DNA of 64,000 nucleotides, taken from the sequence record ON210137.1; one strand, given 5' to 3'. A program made the position numbers and the translations under genes. Below the pieces are notes generated by a model, which had not been told where the DNA came from, ran no database searches, and saw nothing but the letters and a program-made list of their open reading frames with translations. This document shows positions 22,322-32,316 of the stretch, piece by piece. The first letter of the stretch is position 1. Every line of letters begins with the position of its first letter. This DNA is from Escherichia phage EC150.

Positions 22322-22777
22322 ATGTCATTAGATTACGAAAAGTTCAGAATAAAATTTCCACAGTTTGCTGATCAGGTAAAATTCCCTGACACAACGCTTC
22401 AAGTATTCTATGACATGGCATGTGAATTTATTGAATCACAAGACAGTCCTTGTCGTGTTTTAAATGGCAGTAAATTGGAGCTGGCATTGGAATATATGAC
22501 GGCTCATCTTTTATGCATAGCCACAGACCAACAGGTGTCTGTGTCTTCTGGTGACGGAGTTGAACAAGGCGGCTTCGTGACTGGTGCAACAATCGGTGAC
22601 ATCACCGTGAATAAGGTAGCGCCGCCTGCAAGTGATGGTTGGGAATACTGGCTTTCAAGCACTCCTTATGGCATGGCGCTTTGGGCGCTTCTGCAAGCAC
22701 TGGCTGTCGGCGGCTTGTCGTTTGGCGGTCTTCCAGAGCGCGAAGGATTTCGTAAAATTGGTGGGGTATTCTGGTGA
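22322..22777 (+). CDS. head-tail connector/adaptor region protein (hypothetical)
   Basis: ORF track; AAGGTG Shine-Dalgarno before ATG 22322. Confidence 0.45.
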   Translation: MSLDYEKFRIKFPQFADQVKFPDTTLQVFYDMACEFIESQDSPCRVLNGSKLELALEYMTAHLLCIATDQQVSVSSGDGVEQGGFVTGATIGDITVNKVAPPASDGWEYWLSSTPYGMALWALLQALAVGGLSFGGLPEREGFRKIGGVFW

Positions 22778-23160
22778 GGATTCCTGGCGTAAACTTATAT
22801 CGAGTTGCGACAAAGGTCATCGGTCGCCAACCGATTCAATATTACATGTACAAGGGGCGCACTCTTGATAAAATGCGCAACTACGTTACCACTTATGAAG
22901 AACCAATCACGCTACTTGCTTCGGTGCAGGCTGTTCTTCGAAATCAATACGTCGAGCTTGGATTGGAGCTTCAAAAGAACTATGTCAAAATCTGGGTAGA
23001 CAAAGACATTGTTGACCTTGACCGCGACGCTTCCGGCGACTATTTTGTGTTTGGTGGGAAAACGTATAAAATGGAAGATGAAACGACATGGTTTGACCAA
23101 GATGGTTGGACGACTTGCCTTGCCGTGGAAATAAAACAAAGCTTTCCAGTGTCTACTTGA
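22774..23160 (+). CDS. hypothetical virion protein
   Basis: ORF track; GTG start overlapping upstream stop; in-frame ATG 22846 is an alternative. Confidence 0.45.
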   Translation: MRIPGVNLYRVATKVIGRQPIQYYMYKGRTLDKMRNYVTTYEEPITLLASVQAVLRNQYVELGLELQKNYVKIWVDKDIVDLDRDASGDYFVFGGKTYKMEDETTWFDQDGWTTCLAVEIKQSFPVST

Positions 23161-23167
23161 GGTGTAT

Positions 23168-23743
23168 ATGACAGATGTCGACCTGATTGACATGCTGGCA
23201 ACGCGAATTGAAGAAGGTCTGGCGGCGTATAGTCGTGCAGACCTTTCTGCTGTTCCGGTCCAGAAAAAGTATCAACCGACTCAACAGGGTATTCCGACTG
23301 GTGACCAAATTTGGTTTAACCTTTTATTCTCAGTTCCGTTTGGATGGTCCATGAGGAAAAGTGAATTTGTCAATGATGAGTCTCAATTTGTAAACGGAAA
23401 ATTCAAAGATATTGAAGATCAAATATACGCTACACGTTTTCAAATCAGCGGCTTATTTCCAGAAGTTCCTGGCAATCCAGAAAAGCCTACTGCTAATGAC
23501 GTATTGACTTATTTGGCAAGATTCATAACTCATAAAGCGAATTTGAGGGATTGGTTCAAAAAGCATCAGGCATCAGTATATCGAATCGACATGAATAATA
23601 ATGAAAAGTTTTATGATGACATGTCGCAATTTGAATCATTCCCTTCTTTTGATTTGGTAATACTTCACAGAAACGCAATTTCAATTGATACTCCTGCTGT
23701 TGCAAGAGCTGTTAATAATGATTTGGGTGATATTCCGGTGTAA
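23168..23743 (+). CDS. hypothetical virion protein
   Basis: ORF track; GAGGTG Shine-Dalgarno before ATG 23168. Confidence 0.45.
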   Translation: MTDVDLIDMLATRIEEGLAAYSRADLSAVPVQKKYQPTQQGIPTGDQIWFNLLFSVPFGWSMRKSEFVNDESQFVNGKFKDIEDQIYATRFQISGLFPEVPGNPEKPTANDVLTYLARFITHKANLRDWFKKHQASVYRIDMNNNEKFYDDMSQFESFPSFDLVILHRNAISIDTPAVARAVNNDLGDIPV

Positions 23744-24242: not shown

Positions 24243-25781
24243 GTGATCAGTCAATCTCGTTATATTAAAATTGTATCAGGGGTCGGAGCAGGCGCGGCTG
24301 TTGCAGTTCGCAAACTGTCGCTTCGCGTCATGACTTCTAATACAGTTCTGCCGCCGGGCATTGTAGCAGAATTTTCAACGGCTGATGCTGTTGGATCATA
24401 TTTCGGTTATTCTTCCGAAGAATATAAGCGCGCAGCATTATATTTTGGATTCATCAGCAAGCAAATTAACTCGCCTGATTCAATCAGCTTCTCGCGTATT
24501 GTTTCAACTGCGATTCCAGCAATGGTCATCGGTGATACTGAGCCTAAAGTGCTTGCTACGTTTCAAGCATTCACTGGCGCTATTTTAAGCATCACTTATG
24601 ATGGCACAGACTACCTGACTGACGCAATTAACCTTTCAGCGGCAACAAGTCTGGCGAATGTGGCTGAACTTCTGGAAACGGCAATCAATACTAAATTTGC
24701 AGCAGAAGGTGGCACGTCGGTGCCTGCACTTGCTGATGCAGAAGTGTATTGGAACGCTAATACTCAGCAGTTCACGCTGGAAGCAGCGCCGTCGACCGCT
24801 GGCGCAGGCAACCTGTCTATCAACGTCACAGGCCAACCGACCGACCCGTCTCAAGCATTGGGTTGGACCACCACTGGCACCGTAACCGTTGCAGGCCAGG
24901 GCGTTTCAAGTCCGGTAGAAGCAATCGCAGCATCTGTGGAAATCTCCAACAACTTCGGCTCATTCCTTTTTGCTGGGGCTGACCGAACTCTGGAAGAAAT
25001 TACCGCTGTGGCAGCGTGGAATCATTCGCAGAATAATATGTACATGTATTTATTCTCGACTTCGTTTGCTAATATCGGGTCATACTACACCGCTCTGAAA
25101 GGGTACTCAGGCGTTGGCATGATGATTCGCGCAACTAACCTTGCCAACGATTACATCGACCAAGCACCTGCTGAAATCCTCGCGGCAACAAACTATAATA
25201 CTGTGAATGCGACTCAAAACTACATGTATTATCAGTTTGATACTCGCAACGTGACTGTTTCAACTGACTCTCGCGCAGATACTGCTGATCAAAACCGTGC
25301 GAACTACATCGGCGCTACTCAGCAGGCCGGACAAACCTTGGCATTCTTCCAGCGCGGCGTATTGATGGGCGGGTCAACAGCAGCAGTTGATATGAACACT
25401 TATGCCAACGAAATGTGGCTCAAGTCTGCTATTACATCTCAGCTGTTCAGCATGTTCTTGAATCTTGGTCGCGTCCCTGCTAACGAAGAAGGGAAAGCGA
25501 CTGTGCAAGCCATGATTCAGGTTGCTGTGGATAACGCAAAAGTGAACGGCACCATCTCTGTTGGCAAGGCGCTGACTGAGATTCAGAAACAATACATCAC
25601 GCAAACTTCCGGTGACAACACTGCTTGGCGGCAGGTTGAAACTATCGGTTACTGGCTGACTGTAGATTTTGATACTGAAACCACTTCCGATGGGCGCACC
25701 GAATACTATGCAACATACACGCTAATCTACTCTAAAGATGATGCTGTGCGTCGCGTTGAAGGTCGTGACGTTCTTATCTAA
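24243..25781 (+). CDS. tail sheath protein (putative)
   Basis: 512 aa ORF followed by a small tube-like gene; AAGAGGA Shine-Dalgarno; GTG start. Confidence 0.6.
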   Translation: MISQSRYIKIVSGVGAGAAVAVRKLSLRVMTSNTVLPPGIVAEFSTADAVGSYFGYSSEEYKRAALYFGFISKQINSPDSISFSRIVSTAIPAMVIGDTEPKVLATFQAFTGAILSITYDGTDYLTDAINLSAATSLANVAELLETAINTKFAAEGGTSVPALADAEVYWNANTQQFTLEAAPSTAGAGNLSINVTGQPTDPSQALGWTTTGTVTVAGQGVSSPVEAIAASVEISNNFGSFLFAGADRTLEEITAVAAWNHSQNNMYMYLFSTSFANIGSYYTALKGYSGVGMMIRATNLANDYIDQAPAEILAATNYNTVNATQNYMYYQFDTRNVTVSTDSRADTADQNRANYIGATQQAGQTLAFFQRGVLMGGSTAAVDMNTYANEMWLKSAITSQLFSMFLNLGRVPANEEGKATVQAMIQVAVDNAKVNGTISVGKALTEIQKQYITQTSGDNTAWRQVETIGYWLTVDFDTETTSDGRTEYYATYTLIYSKDDAVRRVEGRDVLI

Positions 25782-25787
25782 ATAATT

Positions 25788-25805
25788 GCCGCCGTAACTG
25801 GCGGC
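25788..25805 (+). other. hairpin GCCGCC-GTAACT-GGCGGC between sheath and tube genes
   Basis: Inverted repeat read directly; no T-tract. Confidence 0.35.
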
Positions 25806-25828: not shown

Positions 25829-26296
25829 ATGATTAACGTTTCCGGTTTTGGCGCTTCGATTCGTTTAGTGGCATCAAACACTTTTCCAAATGGTGTAACC
25901 CTTTCTGATTTCGCAGATGATGCTGATCCGATTGACGCGCCTGATCTTCAAATCTCTGAAGCCGCAATGGGGCTTAACGGTGACCTGGTAGTCTGGAACC
26001 GTGCCAACCCTCTTGAAGTAGGCGTCAACATCATCCCTACTTCTGAAAGCGATGTAAACTTAGATGTTCTGGCAGCGGCTAACCGTGTAGGCAAGCGCAA
26101 GAACTCTGCGAAAGACGTGATCACCCTTATTCTGACCTACCCTTCTGGCATGGTCATTACACTGAACAAGGGCACTTTGACGACTGGTTCAGTAATTCCT
26201 GGCATCCAGTCTCAGGGTCGTGTAAAAACACGTCAATATCGCTTTAAGTTTGAGAACGTAGTCAAAACTGGCGTGAGCAACCAAGAGATTTTATAA
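25829..26296 (+). CDS. tail tube protein (putative), paralog A
   Basis: 155 aa directly after sheath; N-terminus MINVSGFGASIRLVA closely matches CDS 27247..27744. Confidence 0.55.
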   Translation: MINVSGFGASIRLVASNTFPNGVTLSDFADDADPIDAPDLQISEAAMGLNGDLVVWNRANPLEVGVNIIPTSESDVNLDVLAAANRVGKRKNSAKDVITLILTYPSGMVITLNKGTLTTGSVIPGIQSQGRVKTRQYRFKFENVVKTGVSNQEIL

Positions 26297-26625
26297 TGTA
26301 TCAAATACCACTTGACAGCGTACCTAACCAGAATATCAGCTTTAACGTTGACGGGGCTTATTGGCAGCTGCACATATTCGCCGCAATTGAGCACATGTGC
26401 GCAGATGTTTACCGCAATGGCGAATTGTTGATTCAAGGGGTGCGCTGTTTTGGTGGTATACCAATGGTGCCTTATAAATATCTCATGATTGGGTACGGCA
26501 ATTTTATTTTTGACAGCACGCCCGATTATGAGAACTTTAATTCTGGCGGCTGTAATTTATATTACATGTCAGAATCTGAGTTGGCTGAATTCCAGAAAAC
26601 TGCTGAAGCGGAGTTTGCAATTTGA
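26296..26625 (+). CDS. hypothetical tail protein (109 aa)
   Basis: ORF track; start overlaps upstream stop. Confidence 0.45.
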   Translation: MYQIPLDSVPNQNISFNVDGAYWQLHIFAAIEHMCADVYRNGELLIQGVRCFGGIPMVPYKYLMIGYGNFIFDSTPDYENFNSGGCNLYYMSESELAEFQKTAEAEFAI

Positions 26626-26978
26626 CAACTCTAACGATTGAAGTTAATGATAACAACGACCTGTTTCTGCCTGATGGAAGAAATTTGAATATTCTGTCAG
26701 GAGAAAAGGCCATGGTACAAGTTATCAAGGCAGCGCATCAAATGCGACTTGGTGAAGACTTGTACGATGTTGAAAACGGAGTCGATTATTTAGGCACTGT
26801 TTTCAAATCGCCCGTTGATGAAGACGGTGCGAGAAAGTCGATTGCAGATGCTATTCTGAAGAAAGCAGACGTTGCCGGAATCGACTCATTGACTGTCACC
26901 ATCCAAAACGGTATTCTTGGATTCACCGCTGAAGTGGTGACTATTTATGGCGAACGTATAAAGGTGAGTAATCAATAA
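26622..26978 (+). CDS. hypothetical tail protein (118 aa)
   Basis: ORF track; TTG start overlapping upstream stop. Confidence 0.4.
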   Translation: MTTLTIEVNDNNDLFLPDGRNLNILSGEKAMVQVIKAAHQMRLGEDLYDVENGVDYLGTVFKSPVDEDGARKSIADAILKKADVAGIDSLTVTIQNGILGFTAEVVTIYGERIKVSNQ

Positions 26979-27244
26979 TGGCACAAGTAATTCATTTTGC
27001 TAATGGCGTCATGAAATTTGGCGAAAAATTTGAAGACGCATCTGAATTATTTAACAAGACTTCAAAGCCTGTTGTGGAGAAGAAAGAACAGGTTGAAGAG
27101 AAGGCAGTAGAATCGAAAGTTGATTTTGATTCGATGAGCGTCTCTGAATTGAAGGCTTATGCAAAGGAACATGAGATTGACATCAAAGGTCTTTCTTATA
27201 AGGATGAAATTCTTGCAGCAGTTAAATCTGCATCTGCGGAGTAA
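26978..27244 (+). CDS. small protein with C-terminal HeH/SAP-like motif (88 aa)
   Basis: C-terminal MSVSELKAYAKEHEIDIKGLSYKDEILAAV resembles HeH/Rho-N type helix-extension-helix motif. Confidence 0.45.
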   Translation: MAQVIHFANGVMKFGEKFEDASELFNKTSKPVVEKKEQVEEKAVESKVDFDSMSVSELKAYAKEHEIDIKGLSYKDEILAAVKSASAE

Positions 27245-27246
27245 AC

Positions 27247-27744
27247 ATGGTCAATATTAGTGGATTTGGCACAAGCATTAGAATTGTCGCTCTCCAATCT
27301 TTTCCTGTTGGGCTGAATATCAGTTCTTTGTCTGATGACCAGGATTCGCTAATTATTGAGGAAGTTGAATCAGTAGGCTATCAACTTACTTATGACGGCG
27401 GCATTTGTATTTATGACAAGGCCGCCGTCGTTCGCGTATCCATTGCGGTGATCCCAAACACTGAAGATGACATAAACCTAAAGCTTTTGCTTTCCGCTCG
27501 TAAAGGCGGATTCAAGTGGCTTCCTATACAGGATGTCACGTCAATGCTTATTACATATCCTGATGGCGGCAGAGTAGCATTTTCGAACGGGACCATAATC
27601 AGCGGTCCGCTTGGCGACTCCATTGAGCAATCCGGTCGTCGCAAGACAAACAGATATACATTCGTGTTTGCCAGCTACGGCGGCGCACAGAGCACATCGC
27701 AAATTGCAAAAGGCGTGGTGCAGAGCATATTGGGGTCAATTTAA
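27247..27744 (+). CDS. tail tube-like protein, paralog B (putative tube initiator)
   Basis: 165 aa; N-terminus MVNISGFGTSIRIVA and overall pattern parallel CDS 25829..26296. Confidence 0.5.
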   Translation: MVNISGFGTSIRIVALQSFPVGLNISSLSDDQDSLIIEEVESVGYQLTYDGGICIYDKAAVVRVSIAVIPNTEDDINLKLLLSARKGGFKWLPIQDVTSMLITYPDGGRVAFSNGTIISGPLGDSIEQSGRRKTNRYTFVFASYGGAQSTSQIAKGVVQSILGSI

Positions 27745-28277
27745 TGGCTATCGATTTATTGTCATATAGTCTTTCAAACAGAAGCTTCAAAATAAGAAGC
27801 TTCAACCTTGGGGAAGTGTCAACGCTTGGTTGGGCTATTGTTAACGTAAAAATAAGACTCCAAGCAAAGATATTCAAAAACCAAAGGGAAGACGGAAGCT
27901 ATATCGTCGATGGCAGAGTCAAAATGCCTAGAATATTGACTGTGACTGTAATAGCACAGACAAAAAGCGCGTCCGACGCAATCGCAAAGATGTTGCAGAA
28001 CAGGTCCACGATATACACAATAAATTCTCGTGGGCTAATCTTTGAACGTATGGTACTGCAAAATAACAATTTCAGCCAAGATGCTGACAATATAACCTCA
28101 CAACCCATACAACTAGTCTTCCATGAGATATTAACACAGCAGGATGTGTCTATTCAAACAGCGCAAGCAGCCGACTCAACTGTCATTGAGCGCGGCATCG
28201 CTTACATAAAAGAGACTACTGCCAGCGTCACTGGCGTTGCAACAAAGGTGATGAATGGCATCAAGGGGATGTTCTGA
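27744..28277 (+). CDS. hypothetical tail protein (177 aa)
   Basis: ORF track; start/stop overlap. Confidence 0.45.
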   Translation: MAIDLLSYSLSNRSFKIRSFNLGEVSTLGWAIVNVKIRLQAKIFKNQREDGSYIVDGRVKMPRILTVTVIAQTKSASDAIAKMLQNRSTIYTINSRGLIFERMVLQNNNFSQDADNITSQPIQLVFHEILTQQDVSIQTAQAADSTVIERGIAYIKETTASVTGVATKVMNGIKGMF

Positions 28278-28837
28278 TGGACTTTGTTTCGATTCTGCTT
28301 TCTGGTCAATCTCTGACCATAACGAATGAGTCGACAGGGCTTCCTGTCTGGACAAGGCTTTCTCCAGTGTCTGCAGAAATAACATCACCAGCAGAAACTA
28401 CTCAATTTCCACTTGCTGGAACGGCGATGCAGGTGGTGGAAGTATCAAGCACATCCTCAGTAAGCAATTTACAGGCGGCAAAAGTAATAATGCCAGCGCA
28501 CATGGCGCTAAACGTAATTTGCAACGACCAATCGACTATTGAAAACATAATTAATACATTCGACAATGATGAAGTCACATTTTCAATAGCTTCTCGAAGC
28601 ATAATTGCAAGTAAAATGTCGATGTCTGATGTCGAAATAACTCAGTCAGAAGAAAACCTGAATGGAGTCTCAATTGTAATAACATTTGAACAGACGTCAT
28701 TTAGTATTCAAGGAAGCTTTGACCCTAAACAGTCCGCAGATGAATCGTCAAATGGCGTGGCTATTAAAGAGCCAGTCAGTTTGACTACAACTGTGAGTTC
28801 GTTATATAATAAAATAAAATCAACAGTAGGAATATAA
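28277..28837 (+). CDS. hypothetical tail protein (186 aa)
   Basis: ORF track; start/stop overlap. Confidence 0.45.
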   Translation: MDFVSILLSGQSLTITNESTGLPVWTRLSPVSAEITSPAETTQFPLAGTAMQVVEVSSTSSVSNLQAAKVIMPAHMALNVICNDQSTIENIINTFDNDEVTFSIASRSIIASKMSMSDVEITQSEENLNGVSIVITFEQTSFSIQGSFDPKQSADESSNGVAIKEPVSLTTTVSSLYNKIKSTVGI

Positions 28838-28838
28838 A

Positions 28839-29255
28839 ATGAAGATCACCAATAAACAAACTGGTCGTAAAGTAGAAATTAAAATCAGCAAAATGACTGC
28901 GATGGAAGGTTGGAACATACAGCGCCGATTTATCGAATTTGCAATGTCAAAAGACCCTGCATTCCGTTCAGAATACACAATGGAAGTATTAAGCTTTGCA
29001 AAGGTTGAACTTGATGTCGGGCAAGAAATTCCGCTGAGCACTGGCGCACTTATTGACAACCATCTTGGCGACTGGGAAAACTTGAAATTGGTTTTCGAAG
29101 CGGTGTTGATGGAAAACGGAATCAACCCAGAGACTCACGCTGAACGTGAAGGATACTGGGAACAAGCTGGCGGCGAAATGGCTGCAGCATTTATTGGCGA
29201 ATCGATGCGATTAATCGCGCCATTCCTCAGCGGCGAGACTCCAAACAAGGGGTAA
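28839..29255 (+). CDS. tail assembly chaperone (putative)
   Basis: Small acidic protein immediately upstream of tape measure gene. Confidence 0.4.
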   Translation: MKITNKQTGRKVEIKISKMTAMEGWNIQRRFIEFAMSKDPAFRSEYTMEVLSFAKVELDVGQEIPLSTGALIDNHLGDWENLKLVFEAVLMENGINPETHAEREGYWEQAGGEMAAAFIGESMRLIAPFLSGETPNKG

Positions 29256-29258
29256 ACT

Positions 29259-31439
29259 GTGTCTGACTCATTAGAAAAATTTGTTCTTCAATATACGGTG
29301 GACTTGAAAGAGTCCATCAATCGTCTTGAGCAATTGCAAGATAAGGTTGATCGGTTGATCAGACAAATAAAGGCCGCTGGTAAGGACTTCACCGGAGCAT
29401 TCAAAGATGTGTTTGGTGAGCTGAAGCCTCTCACAGCTGAACTGGGGTCCATTGACGGAATCCTTGCGCGGCTTACTTATCGCTTTGCCGCGCTCGTTCC
29501 TGTTGTCGCAGGATTGGCTGTCGTAGTCAAATCCATTGTTGATGTTCGAAAAGAATACGAAGCGCAAAGGAAGCTGGGTTTTGAAGCAGGACTTTCACCA
29601 ATTGGCGTGGAGCAACTACAGCGACAATTGAATGAGAGTTCAGGCGGAGTTCTTGGTGCGCAAGGGTCAAGGGATTTGATCAGCAAGGCTTCTAATCTCG
29701 CATTCAACGCATACACCAACCCAGATGTTATGAACAAGGACAACTTGTTACTTAACAAGATGGGAACCAGTCCTTTCAACAGTAACGGCGGCATCAAAGA
29801 CACAAACCGGCTGCTTGATGAAATTGGCACAAAGCTGAGAAGTGTGAATGAGCAAACCGCTCGTGCTATTGGTGCTCTGGCAGGTTTTACCGCTGATGAA
29901 GTCCGTGCGCTTCGTGAGCGAAATCAATCAGTCAAAGAAAGCACCCGTATAAGCGACGAAGAAACCGCGAAGCTGCAAAGACAGCAGGTCGCACTTGAAA
30001 CGATACGAAACAGCATGGGCCAAATTCAAGAAGACTGGCGACGCATTGAACTGGTAATCGGCGAGAACGTGATGCCGGCATTCTCGACGCTTGTCAGCAA
30101 GACTGCCGATACAGTCGAAGGATTCCAGATGATGTTTCAAAGAATGTCTGATGGATGGTCTGAATTTGTCGACAATTTCATCGCTGACTTGAAACACCCG
30201 TTTGATAAACAGGCGGCTGTCAACGAGCGCCACGAGCGTGCCGTTGATAGATGGATCACTCAGATGGCTGACGGCGATGTGAAACGCCAGAGGAGTCAGG
30301 AGCAAAACGCGGCTGAACAACGTTCTGCGCAAGCACTTTTCACTCGCGATATAAACCTGTTTTCAAGCGCCGTTTCAACCTTTGCTGGTGTTATTGATGA
30401 GCGACAAGCGTGGGCTGCATGGGCTGGTGAGATAGGACGAAGCGCAGGCCAATCCGCAATGCCTGGCACGCCAGCACTAAGCACTGGTGCGACCGTAGGC
30501 AACAACTTGGGGTCAGGAAATCCGACTGCATATGACTCAATCTATGAGGAAGCCTCCAAGCGTTATGGAATCCCTGTTGCGATGATGAAGGCCGTCACAG
30601 AAGTCGAATCTGGATTCAACCCTAATGCCGTAAGCGGAGCAGGCGCGACCGGACTGATGCAAATAATGCCTTCCAACTTCAAGGGACTTGGTATCACAGA
30701 CGGTAATGACCCAAGACAAAACATTATGGGCGGCGCTCAACTTCTCAAGGAATATTTAACTGCTGCCAATGGCGATTGGAATCTTGCACTGACTATGTAT
30801 CACGGCGGATATGACCGCAGCGGATGGGGAAAGAACACCCGTGCATACCCTGGCAAGGTGATGGCCGCTCTCGAACGACAGGCGAATGGAGAATACGCCA
30901 CGGGAGCGCCGCAAGGTGCACCAGTTACTCCAGTGCTTAGCGGTAGCGGAGTAGAAGCGTCAAAAGGCAGCTACGCTCCAGTACAGGGCCAATCCCGCCA
31001 AACGGTGCAATACAGACAGTTGCAAGAAGCCATTGCAGGATACCTAAACGTGCCAGTTGAGCAGCTGATGCAAGGACAAGTCAACAAAGGTGATATTGAC
31101 TTTGCTCAAACTTACCTTAAACTTGGAACGCAAAGGGATTATATTAAAAACATGCAGCTGGCTTCAACTCCAGGTGTAAGGCCGAACATTCAGGCCGAAG
31201 CCATGAAGAATGCTCGTCTCGCGGCATTCCAGCTTGAAGCATTCCAGAAATACGGCGGCGACCTTTCCGCGAATAGTCGACCTGGTGGGCGTGATATTAC
31301 TATGGGTCAGAAAAACGTTGTCATCAACGTCAACGGCGCTCAAGACCCAAGAAGCACGGCGATTGAGACTAAGCGTGTGCTTGAACAAGATGATATAAAC
31401 GACATAAACAACCTTACTGCTACACCTTTGAAGTGGTGA
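29259..31439 (+). CDS. tail tape measure protein with C-terminal lytic transglycosylase (SLT) domain
   Basis: Coiled-coil N-terminal part with hydrophobic segment; SLT motifs TEVESGFNPNAVS and GLMQIMP; GTG start with AAGGGG Shine-Dalgarno. Confidence 0.7.
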   Translation: MSDSLEKFVLQYTVDLKESINRLEQLQDKVDRLIRQIKAAGKDFTGAFKDVFGELKPLTAELGSIDGILARLTYRFAALVPVVAGLAVVVKSIVDVRKEYEAQRKLGFEAGLSPIGVEQLQRQLNESSGGVLGAQGSRDLISKASNLAFNAYTNPDVMNKDNLLLNKMGTSPFNSNGGIKDTNRLLDEIGTKLRSVNEQTARAIGALAGFTADEVRALRERNQSVKESTRISDEETAKLQRQQVALETIRNSMGQIQEDWRRIELVIGENVMPAFSTLVSKTADTVEGFQMMFQRMSDGWSEFVDNFIADLKHPFDKQAAVNERHERAVDRWITQMADGDVKRQRSQEQNAAEQRSAQALFTRDINLFSSAVSTFAGVIDERQAWAAWAGEIGRSAGQSAMPGTPALSTGATVGNNLGSGNPTAYDSIYEEASKRYGIPVAMMKAVTEVESGFNPNAVSGAGATGLMQIMPSNFKGLGITDGNDPRQNIMGGAQLLKEYLTAANGDWNLALTMYHGGYDRSGWGKNTRAYPGKVMAALERQANGEYATGAPQGAPVTPVLSGSGVEASKGSYAPVQGQSRQTVQYRQLQEAIAGYLNVPVEQLMQGQVNKGDIDFAQTYLKLGTQRDYIKNMQLASTPGVRPNIQAEAMKNARLAAFQLEAFQKYGGDLSANSRPGGRDITMGQKNVVINVNGAQDPRSTAIETKRVLEQDDINDINNLTATPLKW

Positions 31440-31443
31440 TAAT

Positions 31444-32316
31444 TTGAAAAAGAGAATCCTTAAGGTCACCTTATCTATGCCGGATGGCACAAGCCAAGTT
31501 CTTGATGAAGGATTGATGCTCAGATGCCGAATCAAAAAGGCAGCACTTTCCGTTCAGAATAAGGCCACGATTGAAGTCGCAGGATTAACAGGGTACTTGA
31601 GAGAGTACCTGCTTTCCAACTTCACGGCATTCAACAAACGTCTGCGTGATCAAGGTCAGTTGGCGGCGAACTACGTTAATGTGACTATTGAAGCTGGATA
31701 CAGAGAAGGGAGCGTAATCAGCAGCAACTTGGTATACAAGGGACAGGTGACTACGGTGGAGATAACAGCGCCGCCGCCGAATATCGTCATCAGAATCACG
31801 TGTTATACAAACCAAATAAACAGAACGAAGTTCATAACTCAAGCCGCGCCATCCAACCCGACTTTCAAAGAGTTTGTGGAATGGTCTGCAAAGCAAATGG
31901 ACATTGATACTGTTATTTGCGACACGTCGATTAACAATCAGCGCCTTGTAAACCCAGGAAGAACGACATATGTTGCTGCTGCGCTGCTGCTTGAGATCCA
32001 GAACTATCAACGCAACTCCATCGCGGCATACATTGATGACGATACGTTAATTGTTAAGGATAAAGACAAAATTCTAAATCCAGACCAGATTACGGTCATT
32101 GAGGAATTTGTCGGAATACCGATGTGGAACGAGTGGGGTGCAGACTTCACTTGTATGTATAACGCAGATTTGAAGCTTGCACAAGGTGTTAAATTCAAAT
32201 CAGTCTTAAACCCAAGCTTGAACGACACCACATTTGTCATCATGCAACTTGAATATGATTTAGCGAGTCGTGATGACATATTTACGGTGACGGGCGGCGT
32301 TGCACCATCGGCATAA
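31444..32316 (+). CDS. baseplate protein (putative)
   Basis: ORF track (TTG start; in-frame ATG 31477 is an alternative); position after tape measure. Confidence 0.4.
   Translation: MKKRILKVTLSMPDGTSQVLDEGLMLRCRIKKAALSVQNKATIEVAGLTGYLREYLLSNFTAFNKRLRDQGQLAANYVNVTIEAGYREGSVISSNLVYKGQVTTVEITAPPPNIVIRITCYTNQINRTKFITQAAPSNPTFKEFVEWSAKQMDIDTVICDTSINNQRLVNPGRTTYVAAALLLEIQNYQRNSIAAYIDDDTLIVKDKDKILNPDQITVIEEFVGIPMWNEWGADFTCMYNADLKLAQGVKFKSVLNPSLNDTTFVIMQLEYDLASRDDIFTVTGGVAPSA

Follow-up and report, generated by a model that had tools for sequence, protein, structure and literature searches.

The window analysed here, 64,000 nucleotides of the Escherichia phage EC150 (ON210137.1), includes the tail module of an E. 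coli myophage that belongs to Wifcevirus and is a distant relative of the Pseudomonas PB1-like phages. Phages kaset, FEC19 and ECML-117 share 98% identity with it. The module aligns gene for gene with those of the Pseudomonas phages E217 (PDB 8FUV, 8ENV, 8EON) and Pa193 (PDB 9B42, 9B45), whose virions have been solved, with the sheath, helical bundle, sheath initiator, ripcord-1, ripcord-2, tape measure, hub, collar and gateway genes all occurring in matching order. The tail gene order of phages PB1, MyoSmar, XcP1 and Karil-Mokiny-1 is also the same as that of the window. The five open reading frames of positions 25829-27744 were all found to be present on the + strand and are closely packed, with stop and start codons that overlap or nearly abut. 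The features of the module are as follows:

22774..23743: neck-end collar and gateway (PF22755, PF22756)
24243..25781, + strand: tail sheath (512 aa); Pfam DUF3383, E 2.3e-120; PHROG 205 'tail sheath'
25829..26296, + strand: tail tube (155 aa), paralogue 1; Pa193 gp33, E217 gp32; PF22764
26296..26625, + strand: helical-bundle/plug adaptor (109 aa); Pa193 gp34, E217 gp33; Pam3_gp18 plug
26622..26978, + strand: sheath initiator by homology (118 aa, TTG start); Pa193 gp35, E217 gp34; PHROG 120
26978..27244, + strand: 88-aa 'slot' protein; N-terminal motif and predicted C-terminal helix-extended-helix (HeH)
27247..27744, + strand: baseplate tube/tail tube-B (165 aa), paralogue 2; Pa193 gp37, E217 gp36; PF22764
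27744..28277, + strand: ripcord-1 (177 aa); Pa193 gp38 'Ripcord-1', E 7.6e-20; E217 gp37
28277..28837, + strand: ripcord-2 (186 aa); Pa193 gp39 'Ripcord-2', E 2.5e-26; E217 gp38
28839..29255, + strand: 138-aa protein encoded directly ahead of the tape measure gene; PHROG 4627, unknown function
29259..31439, + strand: tape measure with lytic transglycosylase domain (726 aa); Pfam SLT, E 3.5e-24; PHROG 2013 'lytic tail protein'
31444..32316, + strand: baseplate hub (290 aa); Pfam E217_GP41 'Baseplate hub gp41', E 1.4e-118

By gene order, the sheath gene corresponds to E217 gp31 and Pa193 gp32. The identity of order extends from collar to hub, and E217 and Pa193 share with the window two paralogous pairs, tube/tube-B and ripcord-1/ripcord-2. 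The second ripcord of the window (Pfam Gp38_E217, 240.9 bits) is a distant paralogue of the first (pairwise E 2e-5). The phage of the window differs from these two in being a Wifcevirus with E. coli/Shigella as host.

The first-pass annotation had read the 155-aa and 165-aa proteins as a paralogous tube-like pair, and this was confirmed. Their BLASTP alignment is ungapped, with 47 identities over 143 positions (33%), 61% positives and an E-value of 2e-32, a similarity far past chance, and both are members of PF22764, scoring 202.5 bits (155-aa protein, residues 2-144) and 180.4 bits (165-aa protein, residues 3-144) against a gathering threshold of 27 bits. This family, named E217_Gp32 and titled 'Tail fiber protein gp32', is in structural terms the tail tube family, and exactly two copies of it occur in each related phage record. 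The proteins of E217 (gp32 and gp36) and Pa193 (gp33 and gp37) belong to the same family, and each protein of the window has its counterpart as best match. For the 155-aa protein the best match among solved structures was Pa193 gp33, 'Tail tube' (9b42_M, E 1.9e-48), followed by E217 gp32 (8fuv_T, E 5.8e-42), with a much weaker match to the baseplate tube counterpart (3.4e-25). The 165-aa protein was best matched by Pa193 gp37, 'Baseplate tube' (9b45_M, E 1.1e-52), and E217 gp36 (8env_I, E 2.2e-49), its match to the tube counterpart being much weaker (1.4e-21). The gene of the former lies immediately downstream of the sheath gene and its product groups in the tube clade, which bears out the proposal that one of the pair is the tail tube; that of the latter lies just upstream of ripcord-1, and its product has a conserved C-terminal extension of about 20 aa and groups in the tube-B clade.

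The second paralogue had been proposed to be either a tube initiator or a tube terminator. The solved orthologues of the pair are a tail tube and a baseplate tube (tail tube-B), which places the paralogue at the initiator (distal, baseplate) end. Tube-like folds are reused at both tail ends in some phages, and a protein that terminates or completes the tube at the end of the tail nearest the head, like gp3 of T4, could be entertained on that basis. However, E217 gp36 and Pa193 gp37 are found in the baseplate cap, below the last tube ring, the neck-end collar and gateway encoded at 22774..23743 belong to other families, and the 27247..27744 gene is surrounded by baseplate genes, all of which makes a terminator role extremely improbable. 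The further suggestion that the pair is arranged as in T4-like tails is valid only as an analogy, as searches gave no match to the tube or initiator families of T4: neither paralogue had a Pfam match other than PF22764 at E <= 0.1, the T4-type families gp19, gp48 and gp54 included. The resemblance is functional and at the level of the fold only.

A tree was built from ten tube and tube-B sequences of five genera and two single-copy tubes of more distant phages, and it splits cleanly into the tube and tube-B clades. The duplication arose before Wifcevirus, Pbunavirus, Myosmarvirus, Carpasinavirus and a Burkholderia phage diverged, and both genes are under strong purifying selection (dN/dS of 0.008 for the tube and 0.011 for tube-B). 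The phage collection yielded 28 Wifcevirus-type records, in all of which the tube-B protein is 99-100% identical, near-invariant although the DNA diverges by about 10%. The membership of both products in one Pfam family and the distance of 1 kb between the genes might otherwise suggest interchangeable or recently duplicated tube genes, one of them redundant or decaying, but the age of the duplication, the constraint on both copies and the C-terminal extension peculiar to tube-B leave this explanation with next to no credibility.

Taken as a whole, the module is best read as encoding a tail tube and a baseplate tube-B ring, two adaptors and an 88-aa protein anchored by its N-terminus, an account to which we assign a probability of about 0.92. 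The product of 25829..26296 would polymerise as stacked hexamers within the sheath, and that of 27247..27744, as its ancient paralogue, would by analogy form a single hexameric ring under the tube. The ring stoichiometry and position are transferred from the E217 and Pa193 orthologues, which are about 52-55% identical to the proteins of the window. In those phages tube-B is a single hexameric ring beneath the tube and coaxial with its last ring, bearing the ripcord ring, hub and tip; it serves as platform to a 3+3 ripcord-1/ripcord-2 ring that reduces the symmetry from six-fold to three-fold for the trimeric hub and the channel-sealing tip, and it remains on the tube tip after contraction (PMC10329688, PMC11456595).

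The tube-B ring may also act as the tube initiator, templating the growth of the tube around the tape measure, a role that we infer by analogy with the assembly models of Pam3 and T4. In T4, gp48 and gp54 form a ring with a tube-like beta-barrel on the hub and start tube growth. Pam3 gp17 likewise forms such a ring on the hub, from which the tube starts to grow (PMC9942802). Neither gp17 nor the T4 proteins have a sequence-family match to those of the window, and Pam3 gp17 has an added helical C-terminal domain and is in direct contact with the hub (PMC9942802). In PB1-like phages, tube-B and hub are separated by the ripcord ring. The Pakpunavirus P7-1 has a tail tube (gp77) and two tube-like paralogues, tube-B (gp78) and tube-C (gp79), and its baseplate cap likewise contains additional coaxial hexameric rings built of such paralogues (PMC12697256). 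The likeness to the window is one of architecture, and P7-1 differs in that its extra tube-like rings number two and its ripcord proteins only one.

Mass spectrometry of CsCl-purified particles had previously detected the tube in both Wifceviruses tested, with six peptides and a score of 283 in vB_Eco4M-7, while tube-B was seen in vB_Eco4M-7 only and at a low score (3 peptides, score 4.5) (PMC7048862). The gene identities behind these detections were checked. This pattern fits many tube copies as against six of tube-B, bearing in mind that mass spectrometry protein scores are not copy numbers.

Of the three genes between the paralogues, two encode baseplate adaptors, a helical bundle or plug and a gp25-like sheath initiator. 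The 109-aa protein matches the 'helical bundle' Pa193 gp34 (E 3.9e-26) and E217 gp33 (E 7.5e-26), and passed the gathering threshold of the Pam3_gp18 plug family (PF22479) with 64 bits against 24.2. By homology to solved proteins, the 118-aa protein is identified as the sheath initiator, with phmmer matches to Pa193 gp35, 'Sheath initiator' (E 4.6e-23), and E217 gp34 (E 1.3e-21); its score against PF10934 (T4 gp25-like) was 13.8 bits, below the cut-off of 32.9. The TTG start of this gene is supported, because the alignment to the solved orthologues begins at residue 1-3.

The third gene, encoding the 88-aa protein, is the only one of the three left without an explanation. Its product is small, acidic and mostly disordered, with an N-terminal motif (residues 1-25), a linker (26-48) and a C-terminal HeH (49-88; nt 27122..27241), of which the N-terminus and HeH are conserved and the linker is free to vary. 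The HeH/SAP-like motif that had been noticed at its C-terminus is borne out at the level of the predicted fold. It scores 22.0 bits (E 1.2e-4) against Pfam SAP (PF02037), just under the 23.9 cut-off, and this domain is pre-annotated on two near-identical homologues; AlphaFold2 predicts helices at 55-64 and 75-87 with a pLDDT of about 88. The top Foldseek matches of the HeH were SAP, LEM and Rho-N motifs and the C-terminal motif of T4 endonuclease VII, all at E > 1 and none of them statistically significant. Residues 49-88 resemble the SAP/HeH/LEM/Rho-N motifs (PF02037 and relatives) in sequence pattern and predicted fold, and differ in falling just below the Pfam cut-off and in forming part of a tail-module protein whose family is otherwise unknown. 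Full-length homologues were found in Wifcevirus only and no homologue of solved structure was found. A search for the HeH motif in all window ORFs and all slot proteins did not turn it up anywhere else in the window or in any slot protein from beyond Wifcevirus.

The presence of such a protein in a tail module had been called unexpected, and it proved to be less out of place than this implies. In all 58 related loci surveyed, the slot between sheath initiator and tube-B is filled by a small gene whose product has an N-terminal motif of roughly i-f-t-Q-F-a-h-G-V-l-v-f. When the 703 ORFs of the window were scored with an HMM built solely from non-Wifcevirus N-termini, 26978..27244 came out on top (E 8.6e-4) and the runner-up reached 0.32. 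Judged by its position and N-terminal motif, the 88-aa protein falls within an unnamed slot family of PB1-like myophages, comprising PB1 gp34/ORF33 and relatives. The relatives carry low-complexity acidic tails in place of the HeH; the slot gene of PB1, for example, is a low-complexity one of 142 aa. A second 'PSFNP' motif and a basic 'KTTTKK' tip, common in relatives, are absent from the 88-aa protein. Ig-like domains were considered for the long slot variants (233 and 325 aa), for which Pfam gave none at E <= 0.01, and an argument for surface exposure was dropped.

One reading of the 88-aa protein is that of a putative DNA-binding regulator or genome-end handler that lies in the tail operon by chance. 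The predicted HeH/SAP-like fold would agree with this, as would the occurrence of the motif on phage endonuclease VII and Arc-like repressor families. On the other hand, the HeH is confined to Wifcevirus, whereas the position and N-terminal motif are common to relatives with low-complexity acidic tails, and SAP-like motifs can also mediate protein contacts, as indicated by the MANF/CDNF-BiP entries among the Foldseek matches. We consider this reading unlikely.

In the published mass spectrometry the 88-aa protein was detected in vB_Eco4M-7 with 10 peptides, 64.8% coverage and a score of 2929, among the highest and compared with 891 for the sheath, and in ECML-117 with 3 peptides; the same preparations also held non-structural proteins, namely a helicase and a lytic enzyme (PMC7048862). 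Because of the latter, the 88-aa protein counts as a candidate virion component. The positional counterparts of the 88-aa protein, E217 gp35 and Pa193 gp36, are absent from both cryo-EM models (PMC10329688, PMC11456595). It is accordingly quite conceivable, at somewhat less than even odds, that the protein assists assembly without becoming part of the virion, as a chaperone or scaffold of the baseplate cap or tube that departs before maturation, and that its mass spectrometry signal is carry-over, its small, acidic and mostly disordered nature being like that of many tail chaperones. However, a score exceeding that of the sheath and a second detection in ECML-117 speak against this, disorder alone would explain the absence from the maps, and the conserved gene 28839..29255 already occupies the place ahead of the tape measure gene where a tail chaperone is usually encoded. 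That gene holds the same position in PB1, MyoSmar, XcP1 and Karil-Mokiny-1, and its 138-aa product, which was not detected in the published Wifcevirus mass spectrometry, is by position only a putative chaperone.

In our overall account of the tail, the N-terminal motif of the 88-aa protein would be anchored to a tail or baseplate partner, and the flexible linker and Wifcevirus-specific HeH tip would project freely and therefore be invisible to cryo-EM. Extending this, we tentatively suggest, as a possibility of modest likelihood, that the protein belongs to a class of intrinsically disordered accessory proteins of the tail, so far undescribed and present throughout the PB1-like myophages, with a short N-terminal strand anchored in the tail or baseplate and a flexible, lineage-specific tail projecting from the virion or into the tube channel. 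In Wifcevirus this tail would be an HeH, and in other lineages either acidic, Pro/Ala-rich repeats or a basic tip, KTTTKK; the slot proteins would be real virion components missed by cryo-EM. The Wifcevirus HeH could then tether DNA (a genome end or extracellular DNA) or some other partner during infection. The slot position is conserved and its product is detected by proteomics, in a module that is otherwise fully explained; if a slot protein such as this were confirmed in the virion, the cryo-EM atlases of therapeutic Pbunavirus phages would be missing a component.

The tube/tube-B pair itself is already known, being real but ordinary, and involves no new biology. What it allows is the transfer of the solved E217/Pa193 baseplate-cap architecture to the Wifcevirus phages of E. 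coli, a group that attracts interest for its very fast replication and for the biocontrol of O157 strains. Public records call the tube, tube-B and both ripcords 'tail fiber protein', because of the titles of PHROG 2420, PHROG 2580 and Pfam PF22764. This label is wrong for all of these proteins and could mislead host-range engineering.

A scan of the 21.5-32.5 kb region for promoters and terminators gave numbers not above shuffled expectation (23 vs 18.2 and 15 vs 10.7, respectively), the one feature to stand out being a GC hairpin that lies between the sheath gene and the tube gene.

When the proteins of the window were searched against the sequences of solved structures, the outcome was a one-to-one map of the tail genes onto the virion structures of the Pseudomonas phages E217 and Pa193.

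Tail genes of the window and their solved counterparts
25829..26296, + strand, 155 aa, tail tube: Pa193 gp33 'Tail tube' (E 1.9e-48), E217 gp32 (E 5.8e-42)
26296..26625, + strand, 109 aa, helical bundle: Pa193 gp34 (E 3.9e-26), E217 gp33 (E 7.5e-26)
26622..26978, + strand, 118 aa, sheath initiator: Pa193 gp35 (E 4.6e-23), E217 gp34 (E 1.3e-21)
26978..27244, + strand, 88 aa, 'slot' protein: the only one without a solved relative in this search
27247..27744, + strand, 165 aa, tube-B: Pa193 gp37 'Baseplate tube' (E 1.1e-52), E217 gp36 (E 2.2e-49)
27744..28277, + strand, 177 aa, ripcord-1: Pa193 gp38 (E 7.6e-20)
28277..28837, + strand, 186 aa, ripcord-2: Pa193 gp39 (E 2.5e-26)

Tube and tube-B matched the counterpart of the opposite paralog far more weakly (E ~1e-21 to 1e-25). 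Among the flanking genes are matches to the collar, gateway and hub families of E217, to the sheath and to a tape measure protein that has a lytic transglycosylase domain. The two ripcords, immediately downstream of tube-B, form a second paralogous pair of weak similarity (23% over 112 aa, E 2e-5). Public records (e.g., NC_025441.1, NC_048073.1, PQ850618.1) label tube, tube-B and both ripcords as 'tail fiber protein', a label which stems from the titles of PHROG 2420, PHROG 2580 and Pfam PF22764 and conflicts with the cryo-EM structures.

The ORF listing of the window gave an unbroken series of + strand genes from 21.8 to 32.3 kb, with only short minus-strand ORFs, all nested within them, and the five ORFs from tube to tube-B lie where the first-pass annotation had placed them. 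Adjacent tail genes are joined by TAATG overlaps at 26296, 26978 and 27744 and by a TTG start overlapping a TGA stop at 26622, with a 2-nt spacer ahead of 27247. Sheath and tube genes lie 47 nt apart, and this spacer holds a perfect 6-bp GC hairpin (25788..25805, GCCGCC-gtaact-GGCGGC), at the same position as an annotated terminator in XcP1; it may serve in transcription attenuation or RNA stabilization. A 5-kb block of the window shares 97–98.5% DNA identity with the Escherichia and Shigella phages kaset, FEC19, ECML-117, WFH and Mansfield, all Wifcevirus, and 60–80% with ~300 Pseudomonas PB1-like phages. In the paper on the BASEL collection, Wifcevirus is described as a distant relative of Pbunavirus, with its structural genes annotated with the help of the E217 cryo-EM structure (PMC11990801).

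The proposed paralogy of the 155- and 165-aa proteins was borne out by a gap-free alignment of 143 residues (33% identity, 61% positives, E 2e-32), and both score far above the threshold of Pfam PF22764. PB1, Serratia phage MyoSmar, Xanthomonas phage XcP1 and Burkholderia phage Karil-Mokiny-1 have a common gene order: sheath, tube, helical bundle, sheath initiator, small gene, tube-B, two ripcords, small gene and tape measure. A neighbor-joining tree that covered tube and tube-B sequences of five genera together with two single-copy tubes placed tube and tube-B in separate clades, with identities of 43–60% inside a clade versus 26–39% across clades. In two phages further removed, Bordetella IFTN1 and Burkholderia Bm1, a single match was recovered at the sensitivity used, the copy adjoining the sheath gene. 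In the comparison with vB_Eco4M-7 (89% DNA identity), tube has a dN/dS of 0.008 and tube-B one of 0.011; the tube-B protein is 100% identical to that of this phage and 99–100% identical throughout the 28 Wifcevirus-type records. The duplication is ancient, with both copies retained. Tube-B also carries a conserved C-terminal extension of ~20 residues. Its residues ~149–165 (27691..27741, pattern GAQS..Q.....QS.L) are kept across genera, set tube-B apart from tube and apparently lie outside the solved models (Pa193, residues 1–151 of 167; E217, a chain of 152 residues).

In E217 and Pa193, tube-B has the tube fold (RMSD 3.6–4.2 Å to tube) and forms a single hexameric ring coaxial with the tube. 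This ring bears three ripcord-1/ripcord-2 heterodimers, whose 3+3 ring takes the symmetry from six-fold to the three-fold of the trimeric hub and tail tip, which together seal the channel. An outer 'nut' of wedge proteins is connected to this 'cap' through two adaptors, the helical bundle and the sheath initiator. Contraction sheds the helical-bundle adaptor and tip; tube-B, ripcords and hub are kept on the tube tip (PMC10329688, PMC11456595). In Pam3 the tube is seeded by a tube-like initiator ring, and Pakpunavirus P7-1 has a similar theme with two extra tube-like rings; by analogy with the Pam3 assembly model, the tube-B ring would also template tube polymerization. The 165-aa protein had been proposed as an initiator or terminator paralog, as in T4-like tails. 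Given the ring position at the baseplate cap and the Pam3 analogy, it belongs on the initiator side, and a terminator identity is ruled out by position. The T4 comparison holds only at the functional level, since no T4 family was matched. The original interpretation is essentially right, and cryo-EM of close homologs, together with published proteomics of near-identical phages, had already established the tube/tube-B biology.

Those proteomic data come from mass spectrometry (MS) of CsCl-purified vB_Eco4M-7 and ECML-117 (Necel et al.; PMC7048862), with entries matched to genes by locus tags and masses.

Virion MS of two Wifcevirus phages (PMC7048862)
Tube, vB_Eco4M-7_49: 6 peptides, 52% coverage, score 283
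Tube, ECML-117 PI34_gp47: 4 peptides, 21.9% coverage, score 13.7
Tube-B, vB_Eco4M-7_53: 3 peptides, 25% coverage, score 4.5
Tube-B, ECML-117: not detected
88-aa protein, vB_Eco4M-7_52: 10 peptides, 64.8% coverage, score 2929
88-aa protein, ECML-117 PI34_gp50: 3 peptides, 28.4% coverage, score 12.3

Virion proteomics, a check that the first-pass annotation had called for, had thus been published already, with tube detected in both phages and tube-B in vB_Eco4M-7 only. These semi-quantitative scores fit ~200 tube copies, our own estimate from the ~1,300 Å Pa193 tail rather than a measurement, versus six of tube-B. High scores were also recorded for vB_Eco4M-7_77, _83, _70 and _71 (a glyoxalase-family protein, a 'TolA' protein and two unknown proteins; PMC7048862, Table 1), which are either carried-over non-structural proteins or unrecognized virion components.

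Because of its MS signal, the 88-aa protein is favored to be a flexible, virion-attached component. A transient assembly factor is still a serious rival, as the MS preparations held non-structural proteins too. AlphaFold2 gave no confident structure for residues 1–45 and predicted a helix-extended-helix (HeH) for residues 55–87 (pLDDT ~88). The best fold matches, all with E > 1, were MANF/CDNF SAP domains, the T4 endonuclease VII C-terminus, Rho-N, the emerin LEM domain and Ku70 SAP, and the Pfam SAP score is slightly below threshold; DNA binding by the HeH is putative. Full-length homologs were found in Wifcevirus only. Within this genus, non-synonymous versus synonymous changes number 0 versus 5 in the N-terminus (residues 1–25), 12.8 versus 11.2 in the linker (26–48) and 3.5 versus 9.5 in the HeH (49–88), a substitution pattern that looks like that of an anchor, a linker and a tip.

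A gap of 217–1167 nt separates sheath initiator and tube-B in all 58 related loci. All 37 distinct loci studied closely have a slot ORF starting at, or no more than a few tens of bases from, the sheath initiator stop codon. Their products have a common N-terminal motif (roughly ..QFAhGVlv.), frequently a 'PLPSFNP.PE' motif, a low-complexity tail rich in Ala/Pro/Glu/Thr (62–325 aa) and, in about one-third of lineages, a terminal 'KTTTKK'. An N-terminal HMM of non-Wifcevirus sequences only ranked the 88-aa ORF top of 703 window ORFs (E 8.6e-4; runner-up 0.32). The counterparts E217 gp35 and Pa193 gp36 are missing from both cryo-EM atlases. In the window and across loci L001–L075, the slot family consists of small, mostly disordered proteins conserved in position, with lineage-specific tails (HeH, acidic or Pro-rich repeats, or a basic KTTTKK tip). 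Cryo-EM models include none of them, though the Wifcevirus member scores high in virion MS. Some metagenomic relatives have extra or enlarged slot genes (L039, 2732..3112; L051, 2478..3455; L052, 2085..2786; L056, 2466..2873), comprising a DUF1353 protein, 233- and 325-aa Thr/Val/Ala-rich slot versions and a GDK (collagen-like) repeat protein.
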